A stretch of 32,000 nt of DNA, from the NCBI RefSeq assembly GCF_900079115.1, contig NZ_LT549890.1, positions 1,500,001 through 1,532,000 on the forward strand, read 5' to 3'. Numbering within the stretch: the first letter of the stretch is position 1; every line of letters starts with the position of its first letter. Source of the DNA: Saccharolobus solfataricus. Lineage in GTDB: Archaea; Thermoproteota; Thermoprotei_A; Sulfolobales; Sulfolobaceae. This document shows, piece by piece, positions 2,544-10,890 of the stretch. The notes beneath the pieces are model-generated. The model had not been told where the DNA came from and ran no database searches. It worked only from the letters and a program-made list of their open reading frames with translations. The position numbers and the translations under genes are program-made.

Positions 2544-3914
2544 TTATATGACCTTCCTAGCCGTATAAGATATAATCTCGTTCGTAGATGGATGTTGCTC
2601 AGCGAAACTAGCAAGTTGTTTAGCGTTTAGTCCGTAAGCTACTGCCAATCCCAATTCGTTAATTAAGTATTGAGAGTGGACTCCAATCATCCAAGCCCCG
2701 ATTAACCTCATACTTCCCCTTTCAAATATTAGCTTAAGTACGCCCTCTTTCTGTCCGTAGATTTGCGCTGACACATCCTCTTCCATGTTGTATTCCGCCT
2801 CAACTATCTCAATGCCCATTTTTCTAGCCTTGCTAGGTAATATTCCAACATAGGATAGTGAAGGAATCGTGTATATCGTTACTGGTATGCTCTTAACGTC
2901 CACATAATCCACTGGCATTCCATTAGCCATTATGTTGTTTGCTGCAGCTATACTCATTCTCACTGCAGCGTGATAATATGGGGCTAAACCATTTGCGTCT
3001 CCTGTCGCGAAAACATTTGGAATGTTAGTCTTCATTGTCTCGTCGACAACTATCCCAGTCTTGCTTATTGAAAGTCCTATTTCCCTTGCCCCTTCTGGGA
3101 TAACCGGTCTTCTCCCAGCAGCTAACACTACAGAGTTTGTGAAAATGCTCTTTTTGGAACCATCTTTGGTCGAATAAATTACTTCGTACTCATCATCCTT
3201 AATTTTCTTAACTTCAGTTACGGGAGAGTTGAACTTTATGTTAAGTTTAAGTATTGATAGTAAAGTATTGACGATATCTTGATCCTCAAGCGTTATTAAG
3301 GCTCTATCTAGCATTTCTATAATGTGAGTTTGTACACCCATTAATCTAAAGATTGACGCAATTTCGAGTCCTATATACCCAGCTCCTATGATCACCATGT
3401 CCTGAGGTAGCTTTCTAAATGACGTCTTATACCCAAATATATCGTCGCTTGTTAAACAGTATTCAACTCCAGGTAACCTCAGTTTAGCGGTTTCAGCACC
3501 ACTGGCTATTATCATATACCTAGTCTCAGCCTCAATTTCCTTTCCCTCATCCGTTTTAACTATCACGTGGGTTGGGTCCTTAATCTTAACGTATCCCTTA
3601 TAGAAGGTTAGAGTTTCGTATTGGGACATGTTCCTCTTATGCTGCTTGAATCTCAACTCTTGAACGTAATCTTTGCGATCTTGAACGGTTGAAAAATCTA
3701 GGGGGATCTTTACGTTAGCTATGTTTGTAAGTCTCCAGGCAGTTTGTATCACTTCTCTAACTGTCTTAGATGGTACACATCCACTATACAAGCAATTCCC
3801 TCCTAATTCACCTTTGGGATCAGCCATCAATACGTTGTATTTTGCCTTTGCAAGCCTGAAGGCCCCATGATATCCTGCTCCTCCAGCTCCTATAACAACT
3901 ACATCATATTTCAT
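2544..3914 (-). CDS. Class I FAD-dependent pyridine nucleotide-disulfide oxidoreductase (dihydrolipoamide dehydrogenase / MerA-like)
   Basis: GxGxxG FAD fold (VVVIGAGGAG), redox-active disulfide GGNCLYSGCVPSK, second dinucleotide fold VIIGAGYIGLE, C-terminal HPSTNE His-Glu dyad motif. There is no C-terminal vicinal Cys pair, so I do not call it MerA. Confidence 0.8.
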   Translation of the reverse strand: MKYDVVVIGAGGAGYHGAFRLAKAKYNVLMADPKGELGGNCLYSGCVPSKTVREVIQTAWRLTNIANVKIPLDFSTVQDRKDYVQELRFKQHKRNMSQYETLTFYKGYVKIKDPTHVIVKTDEGKEIEAETRYMIIASGAETAKLRLPGVEYCLTSDDIFGYKTSFRKLPQDMVIIGAGYIGLEIASIFRLMGVQTHIIEMLDRALITLEDQDIVNTLLSILKLNIKFNSPVTEVKKIKDDEYEVIYSTKDGSKKSIFTNSVVLAAGRRPVIPEGAREIGLSISKTGIVVDETMKTNIPNVFATGDANGLAPYYHAAVRMSIAAANNIMANGMPVDYVDVKSIPVTIYTIPSLSYVGILPSKARKMGIEIVEAEYNMEEDVSAQIYGQKEGVLKLIFERGSMRLIGAWMIGVHSQYLINELGLAVAYGLNAKQLASFAEQHPSTNEIISYTARKVI

Positions 3915-4284
3915 AATTATAACTATTAGTTATCAAAGTATTTATTATTTTTTCTTGTTTAACAGTATCTAATAACATTCAAACTATGATGAGATTAAAT
4001 ACTTATTCTTCACGTAGGAAAAACGTTGTATAACACTAGAATATATGGGTCTTAGCATAGATGAATATGCGTTTAGTCAATATTTTTACGCAATTACATT
4101 TACTTATTCATTATAACACGAGAAAAATTATTAGACTCTATTTCCATTTTAGGTATTTCGCACACGTTAGACCTCATCGACTTTATCATTATTATTATAG
4201 AATATTTTATCTTTTTAATTAGTACTTCATAATACTGGCTAAATGCTGTCAATTACGCTAATGGTTCTCTTTTTCAATATTAAG

Positions 4285-4291
4285 TTTAAAT
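4285..4291 (+). promoter_or_regulatory. Putative TATA box (TTTAAAT) for the small-ORF/radical SAM/MBL unit
   Basis: TTTAAAT lies about 38 nt upstream of the ATG at 4326. This would give a short leader containing the GGGTGA Shine-Dalgarno-like motif at 4316-4321. Confidence 0.35.
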
Positions 4292-4325
4292 GTAATTAAT
4301 CATATCTAGCCTATCGGGTGAAAAA

Positions 4326-4412
4326 ATGGAGGCAATCCTACAGACCAAAAAGATAGTTGTAATAGAGAGGAAATATGGTAGATGTGGATATTCTCCAAGC
4401 TGGGGAGACTGA
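4326..4412 (+). CDS. Unannotated 28-aa ORF MEAILQTKKIVVIERKYGRCGYSPSWGD; candidate precursor peptide for the adjacent radical SAM/SPASM enzyme
   Basis: ATG at 4326 is preceded by GGGTGA (4316-4321). The TGA stop at 4410-4412 is embedded in TGAGGT, the Shine-Dalgarno-like motif 9 nt upstream of the radical SAM ATG at 4425. The N-terminal half is hydrophobic/basic and the C-terminal half is rich in Gly, Cys and aromatics. It is too short for the supplied ORF track. Confidence 0.5.
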   Translation: MEAILQTKKIVVIERKYGRCGYSPSWGD

Positions 4413-4424
4413 GGTTATCTCCCC

Positions 4425-5609
4425 ATGGCTCTCTCTAAATTCAACCTTTTTATTGGCGATATTCTTTTTAATACCCTTACTGGGTACGCGATTAAGCTGG
4501 AATCATGGGAAATTGAGAAGTTAAGGAAAGGAGTTGTGCCAGAACATTTAAAGGATATAATAGAGGAAGGTTTCTCCGCTACGGATGAGGACTTAGATGA
4601 GGAAATTGAGAAGTTTTTAAGGAAGCCCGTTCTAGAACCTACTCTCGTATTAACTTATAATTGTAATTTTGATTGTATCTACTGTTTCCAAAAGGGGTTT
4701 AGAAAAAACATTTCGGTATCGGATAAGGTTACAAGGGGATTCGTAAACTACATTAGGAAGAACGAGAAAGGTAGGAAGGTAAGGGTAACTTACTTCGGTG
4801 GAGAACCAATCTTACAGCTTAGGAAAATAGAGGAGATATCTAGGGAATTATCTGACTTAAAGTACTCGTTTAGTGTAGTAACTAATGGTTCTCTTTTGAC
4901 TAGAAAGATAGTAGAGAGACTGATTCCACTAGGACTAACTCACGTCCAGATAACGTTAGATGGACCAAAAGAAGTTCACGATAAGAGGAGGTTCTTTGTT
5001 AGCGGTGAGGGTACGTTTGATGTGATTGTGAAGAATCTAAAGGAGATACAAGATATGGTAAAGGTTGTATTGAGGATAAACATTGATGTGAAGAACTTGA
5101 ACGAAATAGGGGAGTTATTAAACGAATTGAAGATGGAGGGAATAAATAGAGTGAGATTAGATCCTCATTTGGTTCATTCAAATGTGTTCAGAAATGAGTG
5201 GTGGGATTTCACAATATCTAGTAAGGCTGAAGGAGATGTTATGGTTAAGTTCTGGGAGATTGCTAGGAAGTATGGATTTGAGGTTCCACAAGACGTGCTT
5301 AGATTAGGGTTATGTGTAGCTTATTCAAGTGAAGACATTGTTGTTGACCCAGAGGGAAACATTTATCCTTGCTGGGCTTTCACTGGAAACCCCCTTTACG
5401 TTAAGGGTAAGCTGGAAGAGGATGGGAGTGTTAAAGTAACTAATAAGTCGTTGTGGTGGAAGGTTAAAATTGAGGATAAGTGTAGGGAATGTCCATTTTT
5501 GCCGTTATGTATGGGTGGTTGTAAGTTCTTAGCAACTATTAATGGAGATGATTGTAAGAGAGAGGCGTATGAAAAGATAGTTAGGTCAATACGTTGGGTG
5601 ATGGGCTAA
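4425..5609 (+). CDS. Radical SAM enzyme with a complete SPASM domain (peptide-maturase / anSME-like class)
   Basis: CNFDCIYC is the CX3CX2C radical SAM cluster motif and YFGGEP is a GGE-like SAM motif. The C-terminal SPASM signature is C-X13-G-X4-C (CVAYSSEDIVVDPEGNIYPC), then CRECPFLPLCMGGC (CX2CX5CX3C) and a further Cys. About 78 residues precede the radical SAM cluster motif and resemble the N-termini of peptide-modifying SPASM enzymes. Confidence 0.85.
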   Translation: MALSKFNLFIGDILFNTLTGYAIKLESWEIEKLRKGVVPEHLKDIIEEGFSATDEDLDEEIEKFLRKPVLEPTLVLTYNCNFDCIYCFQKGFRKNISVSDKVTRGFVNYIRKNEKGRKVRVTYFGGEPILQLRKIEEISRELSDLKYSFSVVTNGSLLTRKIVERLIPLGLTHVQITLDGPKEVHDKRRFFVSGEGTFDVIVKNLKEIQDMVKVVLRINIDVKNLNEIGELLNELKMEGINRVRLDPHLVHSNVFRNEWWDFTISSKAEGDVMVKFWEIARKYGFEVPQDVLRLGLCVAYSSEDIVVDPEGNIYPCWAFTGNPLYVKGKLEEDGSVKVTNKSLWWKVKIEDKCRECPFLPLCMGGCKFLATINGDDCKREAYEKIVRSIRWVMG

Positions 5610-6295
5610 TGGTTAAGGTAGGTAAGGTTAGGATAATGGAGTTATTGGAGCCTGAATTTTTCGGTACTGTACTTAATCACAATATATCTGTTATCGAAAA
5701 TGGTCCTTGTGGGGGATTAATGATGATTGATACTGGCTTACCGGGATATCTCGATCAGATTGAATCCTATCTTAAGGCATGGGGTTATTCCTTGGAGGAT
5801 ATTTCAGATATCGTAATAACGCATTGGCATCACGATCATGCAGGAAACGCCATGGCAATAAAGAGGATAAGTGATGCTAAGATATACGCCCACGTGGATG
5901 AGTTAGGGGATTTGGAAAATCCTCCAAAATACAGCACTATATATAGTGATGAATTAGGGGTTTCTTTACCAGTGTTTAAGAGGACCATGGAGAGGATTAA
6001 CAAGTTACACTATGAACCAGTTAAGGTTGATTTTGCATTAAAAGGTGGTGAGGATTTGGGAGGGTTTAGGGTTATACATGTTCCGGGGCATACAAAGGGA
6101 CATATTGCCTTATTTGATGGTAAGTGTTTAGTAGTTGGCGATGCTGTTAGGAACGTTAGAAATAAATTATCTCCACCCCTTAGAATATTCTCTTGGAATT
6201 ACGAATTAGCAGTGAACTCGTTCAATTATTTAATATCACTTCCCTATACTGTACTAATACCATTTCACGGTGATATCGTAATTAGGAATTTTTAA
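5609..6295 (+). CDS. Metallo-beta-lactamase-fold hydrolase
   Basis: THWHHDHAGN is the HxHxDH motif, with later HVPGHTKGH, VVGDA and PFHGD metal-ligand motifs. The ATG at 5609 overlaps the radical SAM TAA stop (TAATG), indicating translational coupling. The ORF track starts it at a TTG at 5594. Confidence 0.8.
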   Translation: MVKVGKVRIMELLEPEFFGTVLNHNISVIENGPCGGLMMIDTGLPGYLDQIESYLKAWGYSLEDISDIVITHWHHDHAGNAMAIKRISDAKIYAHVDELGDLENPPKYSTIYSDELGVSLPVFKRTMERINKLHYEPVKVDFALKGGEDLGGFRVIHVPGHTKGHIALFDGKCLVVGDAVRNVRNKLSPPLRIFSWNYELAVNSFNYLISLPYTVLIPFHGDIVIRNF

Positions 6296-6298
6296 CCT

Positions 6299-7470
6299 TG
6301 ATGGGGGTTAAGGGATGAAAATCCACTTCCATGAAGGTAGACCCAAAATCTTTTATAAAAAAAATAATGCTAGTTAATTAATATCCAGCTTATAAAGAAT
6401 AATAGAGTAAATTGAATAGTAAGAATTCAACAAATTGAAAGGAAAAATTTTAGGTGAGGAGATCTGTGTTACCAAGAGTGAATTCCAAATGATAATACTC
6501 AACTTTCCCCACCCCAATTCATCAAATAAGGGAAGAAAGGGAGAAGAAGTAGCCAAAACACTCGTCACAGCCGTGGAACGGCTCAATCGAGAACAAGTCA
6601 AAGATGTTCAAGACCTCAAGCCAAACAGTGAGAAACTACGCCGAGAAAAAAGAAGTAGCCGAGAAATTACTCGAGCGAGTGAAGCAACTATCCCTTGAAA
6701 TGCTAAAAGCAGTGAAGAAAGTAAACATATCAATAGATTGGACCACGATAAAGTACCAGACCAATAGAGAGGTTAGGTAGCTCAGAAGATGGATACTCAT
6801 GGAACTACGCAACTGCAACGACAAAACACAACGGGAAAATACTAGCATTCATTGAACAAGAGAAAGGGATGACAAAAGACCGCATAGTCAAGCTACTTAT
6901 TGAATAGATCTCAGTAAACTTGATAACACTTAACGCGGGATTCTACTCAGCAGACGTGTTGAACTTCATCTCCAAGTTCAAGTTGCAGTCCCAGTAGGTA
7001 CCTTGAAAATCCACAACGATTTCGATGAAGGTGAAGAATAGCAAGAGACATAGGAGGTAAAAGCAGGTGAAGTTCAAGTCAATTGTTCAAGATAGGGATT
7101 AGGAGGAAGAATTGAGTACTTCGCTAGGGCCACAAACCTAGATCTACCCAAGGATGTGGTGTTTAGGCTTTACAACAAGGTGAACCCAATAGAGACTTCC
7201 TATAGGAATATCAAGTCGTTTCTCCCGGTTATAAGCTCAACCAAGTTAGCGTTTCGTAAGCTGATGTTCATGATAGCTCTCTACTTCCTCCTCACCATAT
7301 TCAAGGATGTGAAGAGGGAAGACTTTTACTCATCCTTTTATTACATTAATACCGGAGGATAATTCCATATAAAACAAAGGAAACGCTTAATAATCTTACA
7401 GATTTATTTTCAAGGGGGTATTTTGGGTCTACCGGTGAAGGCGGGCTAGTTCACCGTGCTGTCCATGCTT
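6299..7470 (+). mobile_element. Decayed insertion sequence (transposase pseudogenised)
   Basis: A perfect 14-bp inverted repeat, GGTAGACCCAAAAT (6336-6349) and ATTTTGGGTCTACC (7420-7433), brackets a stretch of broken transposase-like reading frames. The outer boundaries are uncertain. Confidence 0.55.
6435..7365 (+). pseudogene. DDE transposase pseudogene (multiple stops and frameshifts)
   Basis: Fragments read LNREQVKDVQDLKP..., MFKTSSQTVRNYAEKKEVAEKLLERVKQLSLEMLKAVKK..., and a C-terminal NPIETSYRNIKSFLPVISSTKLAFRKLMFMIALYF, which looks like the YREK-type block of IS4/ISH3-like transposases. The fragments are spread over several frames and interrupted by stops. Confidence 0.6.
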
Positions 7471-7590
7471 TGAATATTTATATTAGAAAAATTTAAACTT
7501 TTTTATTTAATTAAAAGACTTTAACAGTGTTAAATAGCATTTAGAGTAGTTTAAGATGGTTAAGTATTTATTGGAAAAAGAAGATTAGTA

Positions 7591-8154
7591 TTGTATATGT
7601 GTCTCCTTATAATCAACAATGTTACAAGGCCAATAATTTCAAATGACATTGTATTACTTAGGGATAACAGTTTCAGCAAGGTAAAAGATTACTTAAGGGT
7701 TTTAAGCAGTGATAAGAGGGACGGGGAGATAAGTAAGAGTTATTTCTATTTTATCGTTGATAGACTAAGGAGGATGGAATTACTAATAGATAATGCAATC
7801 GGTTTTAAGGCAATACTTCCCTTTACGGTAAATAACAAAGGGATAAGTTTGAAGGAGGGGATAATGTATATCACTAACGATAAACAGTTGATATATTTTA
7901 ACTATTACGATGCTACATATCAATGTGATAGGTGTTCTATTACAACTTTTTCATGCGTTCCATCACTGAAGAAGATTGCTCGTGAGTTAGACGTTAAAAT
8001 AAGGAGCGATATTCCGGGTATAGCCTGGTATGAGTTATTGGAGGATATTCAACATTATCTTCTCGAGGCATCCATATCTTTAAGAGTAAAGATAAGTGAA
8101 ATTGGGAAATCGTTTGAGGCGATTAAAGTTGGTGAATATGCGAGAGATTTATAA
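7591..8154 (+). CDS. Hypothetical protein, possibly DNA-binding
   Basis: Long ORF with plausible composition. I recognise no motif. A more likely start is the ATG at 7597. Confidence 0.4.
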   Translation: MYMCLLIINNVTRPIISNDIVLLRDNSFSKVKDYLRVLSSDKRDGEISKSYFYFIVDRLRRMELLIDNAIGFKAILPFTVNNKGISLKEGIMYITNDKQLIYFNYYDATYQCDRCSITTFSCVPSLKKIARELDVKIRSDIPGIAWYELLEDIQHYLLEASISLRVKISEIGKSFEAIKVGEYARDL

Positions 8155-8935: not shown

Positions 8936-10890
8936 TAGAGGGTTAATTTGAGTCAAAGTACGTCTTTATCAAGTTTTATCCCTTTTTATTTCTAAAACCT
9001 TTCAATTGGCATAAATTCCTTTACAACGGGCGATTTAGGTCTTCTTTGCAACTTGTAATTTGTAACTAATGTAGTTGTAAAAATGTTAATATTGGGAATC
9101 GTGTTTCTCTACTAATTAGTCGTCTTCATTTAGTTAATTTTATAGCTTCTTTGAAATAAAGTGAATTCGCAATGGATATCTGAATCACCCGATTTAACTT
9201 AACTGGGAATTACCTTACGGAAGGTAATAACTCAAAATATGGATTAAAAGAGTTTAAAAAAGAAGTAATTTATCTTTTATATTTTGATCTTGTAAGATTT
9301 AATTACACCCTTGAGCGTGTAAATTATAATTACAGTAGCAGCGAAACCTGCGACTATATCGCCAACTATTCTAAGCCAAACTATCAAATTTAGAATAGGT
9401 TGTAGATAGAATAGTGTACCTTTAGCCGCCCAATAACCTACCCTTAAAACTGTAGCTAATTGAACCGCGCCCAAGGCCCATAAGTCTATTCCTTGAAGTA
9501 TGAAACCGATAGCGTAAATTAATATCATAATTCTTAACGTCTTTAGCTCGTTTTCTTTAATCCCATTGGAGAGATATAATGCTGCAATCCACATTAGAAT
9601 AGCAGTTAAACCCCACACTAATGGGAACGCAAGATGCGCATGGGCCATGGTAAATTGTAACCCATGGACATAATAGTTTATTATTGGAGCGTTCAATATT
9701 GAAGCTCCGCCGATAATCGCACCTACAAATCCCCCTCCAATGGCTGAAATTAAAGTTGTAGCTACTAACGTCTTTTGAAATTCGGTCTTAGCTTCACCTC
9801 TTCTCCACAGCAAAAATGCGTAATAAGTTAAGAAAAGAATAGGGACAACCTCTAATATGGCTGCTGATGCTCCCAAATACATCCAGAATACTGGTTCACC
9901 TCCAAAATAATAGTGATGCGCAGTACCTATCATACCTGAAAGTATTTCGCTAGCGGAATCTATACTCGCTGCCATCGTAGCTAGACTTGGTGGTACTAAA
10001 TTGTTGACAACTAAAAGTATTAATACTACTGGTATTACTATAGAGGGCCAGAATCCCTCAACGAACGAGTGTATCATAATCCATAAGAAGAACTGGTCTT
10101 CGGTGAAGTTAGGCCATGGAGCAATTATTGGTAATGATCCGAAGATTGCACCTATTCCAGATCCCAAGAGACCTATTGCAGTAATTCTCGTTAATGGTCT
10201 TAAAGGTTCCGCGGTTGACTTTGAAGCTTTGAAGAATAATGAAGAGGCTAGAAGGAGTATTAGCGCAACTAGGAGCAACCAGAAGGTACCTTGATCAGCG
10301 TCATTTGGCCTTCCTTGAGCACCGAAAATGAACCAATAGGGTGATGGGATCAATTCATTATAGGAGAGCAATATTCCTAGAAGCAGACCTACTCCGGCAA
10401 ATAGCGTTAAGCCTAAAATTGCAAATGAGAGCTTTCTGGATAAGGGAACACCCAGATATGGTAACGCAAAGATTGAAAAGGCAATCCATGTAAGTGCTAT
10501 CCACACCACTGCCATGTTTAAGTGTAAGGCCCTAGTAATGTTAAAAGGTAGGAAGTTTATTAAACCTAATATTCCCTCTGGGTCTACGTAATAATGCATA
10601 GCCAAATATCCTAACAAACCTTGTATACCCGCGAGGACTGAGGCGAAGAATACTCCTATTAAACCTATCCTTTGTGATGCAGATGGTGGAGGAAGGGGGA
10701 CAGATATTCTAGGATCTCTCCAATGGTCAAGTATTTTTAGACTAACGTAGCTCACCATTGAAACTAAGACCGCTAAAAGGACGATTACCATTATCCACGT
10801 TGATAGACTAACGTTTACGGATGGTTGAGTTTGTTGAGGTATGTAGGGAAAACCATTAGTATAGCCTAGGAGAGAAATCATAGCACCCCA

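Follow-up and report, generated by a model that had tools for sequence, protein, structure and literature searches.

A conserved short open reading frame upstream of a radical SAM/SPASM gene of Saccharolobus solfataricus as the probable precursor gene of a modified peptide

Is the open reading frame (ORF) of 28 codons that lies directly upstream of a radical S-adenosylmethionine (SAM)/SPASM gene in Saccharolobus solfataricus a gene at all and, if so, is its product the substrate of the enzyme encoded next to it? The ORF occupies positions 4326-4412 of the stretch of 32,000 nucleotides (nt) that was analysed here (contig NZ_LT549890.1 of assembly GCF_900079115.1, positions 1,500,001 to 1,532,000; hereafter the window), and it had been singled out in an initial annotation made from the sequence alone. 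Comparison of orthologous loci identifies it as a real gene, conserved in thermoacidophilic archaea of two phyla, under purifying selection at the protein level and strictly coupled to one family of radical SAM enzymes. It is probably the precursor gene of a peptide that is made on ribosomes and modified after translation (RiPP), which would be co-transcribed with the neighbouring gene and modified by the enzyme encoded there. The two genes are as follows:

4326-4412, forward strand: putative precursor peptide gene, 28 codons plus TGA, encoding MEAILQTKKIVVIERKYGRCGYSPSWGD (from the ORF list and the orthologs)
4425-5609, forward strand: predicted radical SAM/SPASM peptide maturase of 394 amino acids, identical to AAK41779.1 of S. 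solfataricus

The reading frame is as the initial annotation had described it, running from the ATG at 4326, which is the earliest possible start after the upstream in-frame stop, to GAC and the TGA at 4410-4412; the residue content was also given correctly, with a single Cys (C20), two Tyr (Y17 and Y22) and one Trp (W26). Taken alone, without comparison, the ORF is not beyond chance, because the AT-rich spacer around it contains several other ORFs of 20-53 amino acids within the same 400 nt. What raises it above chance is its conservation upstream of the orthologous radical SAM gene together with a codon-position pattern of the coding type. The gene has largely escaped annotation. An exact look-up of the S. 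solfataricus peptide in a collection of 15 billion proteins gave no entry, and the S. islandicus and Acidiplasma peptides are present there only as Joint Genome Institute (JGI) gene calls, the former as a 'hypothetical protein' and the latter without a name. At all other orthologous loci fetched, the ORF is missing from the gene calls, and the NCBI annotation omits the gene. The precursor has no match among the Pfam and NCBIfam models.

Orthologous loci were gathered from species-representative genomes and by exact-protein look-up, the one scan of a genome collection being limited by its pattern to 10 orthologous loci, and the 14 species-level lineages counted here are those whose locus includes the upstream DNA. 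They are S. solfataricus, S. islandicus, Acidianus hospitalis, 'A. copahuensis', A. manzaensis, two Metallosphaera species, Sulfurisphaera javensis, Aramenus, a 'Desulfurococcales' metagenome-assembled genome (MAG), Acidiplasma and three Thermoplasmata MAGs. An ORF of 23-28 amino acids precedes the orthologous radical SAM gene in 14 of the 14 loci, the distance from its end to the start codon of that gene being -1 to 18 nt (-1 denotes an overlap of 1 nt), and every one of the 14 peptides terminates in R-C-[G/N]-Y-S-P-S-W-G-[D/E/N/Q], followed directly by the stop codon. The check that the initial annotation had proposed, an inspection of the orthologous loci for stops, indels and codon-position bias, came out in its favour: neither a stop nor a frame-breaking indel occurs in the peptide ORF of any of the 14 lineages, and the substitutions show a strong preference for synonymous sites.

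In the nine core codons, the summed pairwise differences amount to 88, 88 and 435 at the first, second and third codon positions, respectively, and those at the first two positions stem solely from the site that is either Gly or Asn and from Ser25, which is retained across switches between AGY and TCN codons. All four Pro codons are in use among the orthologs at residue 24. By the Nei-Gojobori method, the proportions of synonymous (pS) and nonsynonymous (pN) differences in the core are 0.77, which is saturated, and 0.107, and thus pN/pS is 0.14; the ratio is 0.32 for the leader part and 0.245 across all 18 aligned codons. The cross-genus nucleotide identity is 66% in the last 54 nt of the ORF versus 31%, that is, background, in the upstream flank. 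When S. solfataricus is compared with S. islandicus, two changes, both synonymous, are found in codons 11-28, all three amino acid changes in the peptide fall in codons 4-10, and 7 positions differ in the 12-nt spacer that follows the ORF.

The coupling is also seen in the reverse direction, starting from the peptide. A degenerate DNA pattern for the peptide core, scanned against metagenome contigs, returned 19 stretches. In 15 of them, the match is terminal in a short ORF that has the same leader motif, and these 15 ORFs adjoin the radical SAM gene wherever the contig reaches that far. The scan yielded new peptide variants, for example one ending in RCNYSPSWGE, and in viral contigs zero copies of the pattern were found. 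The matches in L034, L036, L041, L046 and L047 (L numbers designate individual loci) were set aside as chance matches; four of them lie within longer ORFs and one lacks a matching short ORF.

The initial annotation had divided the peptide into an aliphatic and basic leader-like half and a C-terminal 12-residue core that would serve as substrate of a radical SAM/SPASM enzyme. The conservation pattern splits the peptide in the same manner:

4326-4373, forward strand: predicted leader region, residues 1-16 (boundary inferred), with the motif K9-I-V-V-I-E-R-K16
4377-4409, forward strand: predicted core region, G18-D28 (boundary inferred), in which R19, C20, Y22, S23, P24, S25, W26 and G27 are invariant

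In the family alignment, an N-terminus of variable length is followed by the leader motif K-[VIL]-[VIL]-[KRV]-[ILV]-[EDQ]-R-[KR], which is amphipathic, with K9 and R15 invariant and hydrophobic residues at positions 10, 11 and 13. A single variable residue separates the leader motif from the core: position 17 is Tyr, Ile, Ala, Met, Thr or Leu. The C-terminal core is thus conserved as proposed, but the 12-residue version of it begins one residue too early. Position 18 is Gly or Cys and precedes the near-invariant C-terminal stretch; the peptide contains one Cys, or two in Thermoplasmata. Position 21 is Asn in 4 of the 14 species-level peptides, which form a C-N-Y subfamily, and in most of the additional metagenome variants. 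The last residue is Asp or Glu in 6 of the 14 peptides and Asn or Gln in the other 8 (four of each), and the spacing from Cys20 to this residue is i+8. Of the modification sites envisaged in the initial annotation, the single Cys, C20, is invariant and remains a candidate, and two of the three aromatic-X-X triads, Y22-S-P and W26-G-[D/E/N/Q], are kept in all sequences and remain candidate sites, while the third, Y17-G-R, is lost with the variable Y17.

The DNA around the ORF contains several signals of the kind expected for transcription and translation:

4285-4290, forward strand: TATA-box-like TTTAAA, putative archaeal promoter of an operon consisting of the peptide gene, the radical SAM gene and a downstream metallo-beta-lactamase (MBL)-fold gene
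4316-4321, forward strand: Shine-Dalgarno-like GGGTGA, 4 nt 5' of the peptide ATG (read from the sequence)
4411-4415, forward strand: Shine-Dalgarno-like GAGGT of the radical SAM gene, overlapping the peptide stop codon (read from the sequence)

The promoter of the operon can tentatively be placed at the TTTAAA, because this motif sits within a 27-nt block, ATATTAAGTTTAAATGTAATTAATCAT, that S. islandicus has unchanged, and because synteny of the two species starts at position 4190 of the window; the spacer flanking the block varies. The motif is located about 36-41 nt 5' of the peptide ATG, and if it is a TATA box, the usual archaeal spacing from TATA box to start would give the peptide transcript a 5' untranslated region (UTR) of roughly 10-13 nt. 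A promoter scan was made with a sigma-70-type model, which is not informative for an archaeon. The GGGTGA in front of the peptide ATG is where the initial annotation had located it, and it has counterparts in S. islandicus (GGGTGG) and, at a similar position, in Acidiplasma (GGTGAT). Acidianus and Metallosphaera have no obvious Shine-Dalgarno motif in front of the peptide ORF, and such a motif is therefore not a family-wide feature. The peptide ORF of S. solfataricus ends 12 nt before the radical SAM gene; in other Sulfolobales, the peptide-radical SAM spacers of 12-18 nt hold motifs equivalent to GAGGT (TGAGGTGA, GGAGG), and in Thermoplasmata the stop codon of the peptide ORF and the start codon of the radical SAM gene overlap or abut (TAATG, TAAATG). 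Judged by this spacing, the two genes have an operon-type arrangement.

The radical SAM enzyme itself is recognizable from its Pfam Radical_SAM domain (PF04055, E value 6.9e-21) and from three regions:

4425-4634, forward strand: putative N-terminal peptide-recognition domain, residues 1-70, resembling a RiPP recognition element (RRE) (from the AlphaFold2 model and the alignment to CteB)
4662-4685, forward strand: CX3CX2C motif (C80, C84 and C87, in CNFDCIYC), predicted to hold the SAM-cleaving [4Fe-4S] cluster (read from the sequence)
5313-5555, forward strand: predicted SPASM domain, in which seven Cys (C297, C316, C353, C356, C362, C366 and C377) are invariant in the alignment

The three Cys of the CX3CX2C motif are invariant across the 21 orthologs of the enzyme alignment. 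The Cys of the SPASM region are spaced as CX13GX4C...CX2CX5CX3C...C, which is the published SPASM motif, and the Pfam SPASM match is below threshold (16.7 versus 21.5 bits). The 70 N-terminal residues are strongly conserved, the segment F15-N-T-L-T-G-Y-A22 being nearly invariant. The AlphaFold2 model of this region contains strands at residues 7-10, 13-16 and 22-24 and helices at residues 27-34, 40-46 and 54-65, at low confidence (predicted local distance difference test, pLDDT, 36-70); the profile alignment enters the N-terminal domain of CteB from residue 26 of the query, and the Pfam scan of the enzyme gave no PqqD or RRE match. CteB ranked first both in a profile search of the PDB (E value 3e-27, query residues 26-372) and with Foldseek (E value 7e-18, template modelling (TM) score 0.65, about 20% identity), followed by anSME, an anaerobic sulfatase-maturating enzyme, and by the RiPP maturases ChlB, SkfB and SuiB. 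The fold match to CteB and anSME extends over the full length of the enzyme.

The best NCBIfam matches, all of near full length, are geopeptide (TIGR04280, 241.4 bits), CefB (216), TIGR04463 (172), Clo7bot (162) and PapB (148.5). Their cut-offs are much higher (400 for geopeptide, 600 for CefB, 340 for PapB (NF047865), and within 400-600 for the geopeptide, CefB, TIGR04463 and Clo7bot models). Because the best curated families all match over the full length and yet score below their cut-offs, the archaeal enzymes are to be regarded, by sequence, as a distinct and unnamed family within a clade that acts on Cys-containing peptides. One database source labels the Sulfurisphaera javensis ortholog a 'geopeptide radical SAM maturase'. 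Orthologs of the enzyme (49-89% identity) are confined to Sulfolobales and Thermoplasmata, the next matches having at most 34% identity. S. acidocaldarius and S. tokodaii are without a listed ortholog, and the distribution of the system in Sulfolobales is patchy. The nearest bacterial relatives (31-32% identity) belong to the same clade and adjoin Cys-rich precursors, in which acidic or amide residues lie downstream of Cys. In Natranaerobius thermophilus, the relative is encoded after three tandem Cys-rich precursors and before an ABC transporter, and at another bacterial locus it is preceded by an ORF of 46 amino acids that ends in ACLMCGINNPDNR. As a side observation, the Natranaerobius precursors (L055, 2233-2876) have 55-60 amino acids; their ends, APWDD, SPTDD and SPYDD, bear a faint resemblance to the SPSWGD of the archaeal peptides. 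Only a fragment of the enzyme gene (residues 181-329) is left in a Stygiolobus sp. (L010, 4001-4447), where no peptide ORF is present and the system has apparently decayed.

The peptide would be the substrate of this enzyme, and a mechanism can be proposed from the sequences and the models. The leader (about residues 1-16, K-V-V-x-I-E-R-K) would pair as a strand with the RRE-like domain, and the core R-C-[G/N]-Y-S-P-S-W-G-[D/E/N/Q] would move into the active site. There, the cluster held by C80, C84 and C87 would cleave SAM reductively to yield a 5'-deoxyadenosyl radical, which would take a hydrogen atom from a core residue, while two auxiliary clusters of the SPASM domain would handle the thiol and the electron. 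The likeliest outcome would be an intramolecular thioether from Cys20 to a carbon of a downstream residue, the first candidate for the acceptor being the C-terminal Asp, Glu, Asn or Gln, with which a ring of nine residues would be closed. A carbon-carbon cross-link at Trp26 or Tyr22, of the three-residue cyclophane type, might be formed instead of, or in addition to, the thioether. In Saccharolobus, the MBL-fold hydrolase of the operon may process the product, its membership of the system being tentative. By analogy, the Cys20 thioether is considered most likely because the nearest characterized relatives all make Cys thioethers, because the nearest bacterial homologs act on Cys-containing peptides, and because the restriction of the C-terminal residue to Asp, Glu, Asn or Gln recalls PapB. 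PapB joins Cys to the carbon next to the carboxylate of Asp or Glu and can macrocyclize onto the C-terminal residue of the peptide (PMC12373016).

How close does this bring the archaeal pair to known systems? The closest solved relative, by profile and by fold, is CteB, a sactipeptide/ranthipeptide maturase that makes thioethers and modifies CteA (thermocellin, of the SCIFF type, Clostridium thermocellum; PDB 5WGG and 5WHY). It shares the N-terminal domain, which in the archaeal enzyme is a putative peptide-recognition domain, the radical SAM barrel and the SPASM domain, and a short Cys-containing peptide is encoded beside it. However, sequence identity is only about 20%, the SCIFF maturase model TIGR03974 gives 96.7 bits against a cut-off of 425, and the present host is an archaeon. 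Moreover, six Cys are spread over about 45 residues in SCIFF precursors, as against one or two over 23-28 residues in the archaeal peptides, which have a different, invariant and aromatic-rich core. PapB and its precursor PapA (the ranthipeptide freyrasin) are similar in the full-length match of the enzyme and in the invariant Cys that is followed, eight residues on, by a C-terminal Asp, Glu, Asn or Gln. They differ in that the match is below the cut-off, PapA has six CX3D repeats instead of a single Cys with i+8 rather than i+4 spacing, and the eight archaeal peptides that end in Asn or Gln offer no side-chain carboxylate there. By definition, the Cys sulfur is joined to a beta or gamma carbon in ranthipeptides and to an alpha carbon in sactipeptides.

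The geopeptide, CefB, TIGR04463 and Clo7bot families provide the top curated models, and the nearest bacterial homologs fall in the same clade, but the scores are well below the cut-offs and the archaeal precursor is unmatched. No paper was found on the geopeptide family and, to our knowledge, the products of these four families are uncharacterized. The enzymes of triceptides, the three-residue cyclophane RiPPs (XyeB, GrrM, FxsB and YhhB type), cross-link aromatic-X-X motifs in short precursors, and the archaeal peptides are likewise short and have two such triads. In contrast, the YhhB model (NF041707) reaches only 68.2 bits on the enzyme against a cut-off of 445 and covers nothing but the generic radical SAM core (residues 79-210), the enzyme being much closer to the thioether-type maturases. 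Thus, the kind of system, a radical SAM/SPASM maturase with a short precursor encoded next to it, is well known, while the family of precursor and maturase described here is, as judged from the sequences, new.

The third gene of the presumed operon encodes the MBL-fold protein:

5609-6295, forward strand: MBL-fold metallo-hydrolase of 228 amino acids (from ATG 5609) with an HxHxDH motif (Pfam Lactamase_B, E value 2e-31); role in the pathway tentative

The stop codon of the radical SAM gene and the start codon of the MBL gene overlap in TAATG at 5607-5611, and a GGTGAT is found at 5597-5602, 7-12 nt 5' of the MBL ATG. Because the peptide stop codon overlaps the GAGGT and the radical SAM stop codon overlaps the MBL ATG, the three genes look like one operon in Saccharolobus. 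In Metallosphaera, in four Thermoplasmata loci, in metagenome contig L039 and in L043/L050, MBL orthologs adjoin the peptide-radical SAM pair on the opposite strand, and in Metallosphaera, Thermoplasmata and L039, a U32-family gene is located beside them, the protein having the hydroxylases TrhP and UbiU as its best NCBIfam matches. The MBL gene is regarded as a tentative and the U32 gene as a possible member of the system. They were downgraded because the U32 family extends far beyond the peptide system, because S. tokodaii has the U32-MBL pair with no peptide or radical SAM gene within 6 kb, and because the U32 gene of S. islandicus is located elsewhere in its genome; the breadth of the family and the unlinked position in S. 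islandicus also led to the rejection of U32 as a dedicated tailoring enzyme. In a separate observation on Sulfurisphaera tokodaii (L053, 6001-7824), the MBL ortholog is apparently split by a frameshift, as indicated by two tblastn segments.

Several points weigh against the view that the ORF encodes a RiPP precursor for the adjacent enzyme. The enzyme is below the cut-off of every NCBIfam family, and the RRE-like domain is modelled with low confidence. Radical SAM chemistry is not predictable from homology at 20-30% identity. The thioether maturases of the clade normally act on Cys-rich peptides, whereas the peptide here has one Cys, or two in Thermoplasmata, and the invariant Tyr22 and Trp26 would be equally consistent with carbon-carbon or carbon-oxygen cross-linking. 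Both neighbouring genes, MBL and U32, are also found where the peptide system is missing. Finally, at the loci examined no protease, no transporter or exporter and no immunity gene is conserved near the system, which leaves the removal of the leader and export unexplained.

The last point speaks for the alternative that fares best, a variant of the main reading in which the peptide is still the substrate of the enzyme, but the product, rather than being a secreted or antimicrobial RiPP, is a small intracellular metabolite or redox cofactor derived from the peptide, following the logic of pyrroloquinoline quinone (PQQ) or mycofactocin; cross-linking by the radical SAM/SPASM enzyme would then be followed by trimming or oxidation by the MBL-fold protein and perhaps by the U32-family protein. 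We consider this rather unlikely. The similarly doubtful extension of it would be that the C-x-Y-S-P-S-W-G core gives rise to a redox cofactor, metal ligand or signal that is common to Sulfolobales and Thermoplasmata through horizontal transfer. The core is invariant in two archaeal phyla, a feature that typifies cofactor precursors and is unusual among antimicrobial RiPPs, and the system has in common with PqqA/PqqE/PqqB a very short precursor (23-28 amino acids; PqqA has 22-24), a radical SAM/SPASM enzyme (which here would use its putative RRE), an MBL-fold accessory protein and a core that is conserved across distant taxa. PqqB is the MBL-fold protein of the PQQ pathway, and the MBL gene is translationally coupled in Saccharolobus and adjacent in four other arrangements; the adjacent U32 genes, with their hydroxylase matches, fit the same logic.

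The specific resemblances do not hold up. The initial annotation had seen a pair reminiscent of PqqA in E14-x-x-Y17, but the spacing is E-X2-Y instead of E-X3-Y and Y17 is not conserved. Its comparison of the CGY string with the CGVY end of mycofactocin precursors fails as well: G21 is Asn in the C-N-Y subfamily, the C-[G/N]-Y motif is internal, six residues from the C-terminus, and the C-terminal GVY of MftA is absent. PqqE (TIGR02109) and MftC (TIGR03962) are outside the 25 best NCBIfam matches of the enzyme, as is PqqB for the MBL protein, and a PqqC-like or PqqD-like gene is not present; the MftC model matches an unrelated second radical SAM protein of Metallosphaera. In addition, the U32 and MBL orthologs, being more widespread than the peptide system, may serve another pathway; in Metallosphaera, they adjoin AhbD- and AhbC-like radical SAM genes. 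The patchy distribution in Sulfolobales also argues against this alternative. A connection with caldariellaquinone, the benzothiophene quinone that Sulfolobales derive from tyrosine, was rejected: S. acidocaldarius and S. tokodaii make this quinone and have no radical SAM ortholog listed, while the system is present in Thermoplasmata, which are not known to make it.

A far less probable alternative is that the ORF is a regulatory upstream ORF, encoding a conserved leader or arrest peptide whose translation controls expression of the radical SAM gene, and that the substrate of the enzyme is encoded elsewhere. The geometry would permit translational control, since the ORF ends at most 18 nt from the radical SAM start codon or overlaps it, and the best-conserved part of the peptide is its C-terminus, beside the stop codon, with Trp and Pro among the conserved residues; C-terminal conservation of this kind is found in the arrest peptides TnaC and SecM. 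Yet the enzyme is a member of the SPASM peptide-maturase clade with a putative RRE-like domain homologous to that of CteB, the characterized members of this clade have their substrates encoded beside the enzyme, and no other candidate substrate gene is conserved nearby. The leader motif is conserved too, which C-terminal arrest would not need, and in the peptide region there is no terminator-like or attenuator site and no Rfam family. The remaining explanation, a chance ORF in the 5' UTR or promoter that owes its conservation to a DNA or RNA element, could appeal to the other short ORFs nearby and to the absence of the gene from the NCBI annotation, but it is effectively refuted by the codon-position analysis, in which the variation at third positions is about five times that at first and second positions, by the synonymous switches, intact frames and background identity outside the ORF described above and by the lack of an Rfam match, and the ORFs are not misaligned paralogous fragments.

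Returning to the precursor-maturase pair, no paper was found on it in the literature, including the GYSPSWG motif and radical SAM RiPPs of Sulfolobus. According to a survey from 2025, archaeal radical SAM RiPP clusters are known only as predictions, and before that survey, only two haloarchaeal lanthipeptides had been validated as archaeal RiPPs (PMC12144867). For A. manzaensis, the one genome compared, the antiSMASH-7 table of the survey contains three regions, and none of them overlaps the peptide-radical SAM locus (PMC12144867). The pair described here is compact, with an invariant nine-residue core and a conservation pattern that is unusual for a RiPP. The conservation of the core over two phyla and the absence of export and immunity genes suggest a possible physiological role in hot acid rather than in antibiosis. 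S. solfataricus and S. islandicus are genetically tractable models, so that product and function are directly testable, and a missed gene is added to a heavily used reference genome.

Further downstream in the window, one more gene recurs near the system:

7597-8154, forward strand: 'F3', a protein of 185 amino acids confined to Sulfolobales, often encoded directly 3' of the radical SAM gene; link to the system uncertain

F3 adjoins the radical SAM gene in A. hospitalis, in the two Metallosphaera species, in Aramenus and in L003, L035 and L039, and its paralogs and orthologs are also found in genomes without a listed radical SAM ortholog. The family (about 180 amino acids; window 7597-8154, L001 5319-5855, L002 5273-5821 and L032 6274-6813) has an invariant N-terminal M-C, an SKSYYYYI motif and a C-x2-C...C arrangement, in which the invariant Cys are C110, C113 and C120 in the form starting at ATG 7597, or C112, C115 and C122 in the longer form starting at TTG 7591. 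Searches of Pfam, NCBIfam, PDB sequences and Foldseek gave no match, though the model was usable (pLDDT 71), and a role as winged-helix regulator was discarded, as Pfam, PDB and Foldseek gave no significant support.

Some observations concern the wider surroundings of orthologous pairs. In Metallosphaera (L002, 956-3838, and L032, 854-4791) and in a metagenome contig (L039, 5888-9798), the genes directly opposite the peptide-radical SAM pair form a divergent cluster in the order U32, MBL hydrolase, a radical SAM/SPASM protein (TIGR04053/AhbD-like, 352 bits) and another radical SAM protein; the latter two may be the haem enzymes AhbD and AhbC instead of members of the peptide pathway. In Sulfurisphaera javensis (L028, 7558-9765), a DUF929/PQQ_2 beta-propeller protein of 735 amino acids is encoded about 1.3 kb 3' of the pair, an architecture that is found in quinoproteins and also in many unrelated beta-propellers.

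In the window itself, the region between the MBL and F3 genes contains an element of about 1.1 kb (6336-7433) that is delimited by perfect 14-nt inverted repeats, GGTAGACCCAAAAT and ATTTTGGGTCTACC, and has only short, broken ORFs inside; S. islandicus has about 280 bp where the window has 6296-7473, and the element looks like a degenerate insertion sequence or miniature inverted-repeat transposable element. At the other side of the pair, positions 4-1400 match an AAA_14/DUF4143 ATPase gene of S. islandicus, but in the window the sequence is inverted and divided between two ORFs (21-884 and 973-1404). Two genes lie between this match and the peptide gene, one for a serine recombinase (1819-2394, HTH_17 and Resolvase domains) and one that is dihydrolipoyl-dehydrogenase-like (2544-3914); both are absent at the same position of S. 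islandicus, the synteny breaking at 4190. Further downstream, an ORF of 534 amino acids on the reverse strand (9277-10881) corresponds, with 92% DNA identity, to an S. islandicus gene for a NorB/COX1-like haem-copper oxidase of 706 amino acids, compared with which it appears to be shorter at the N-terminus.

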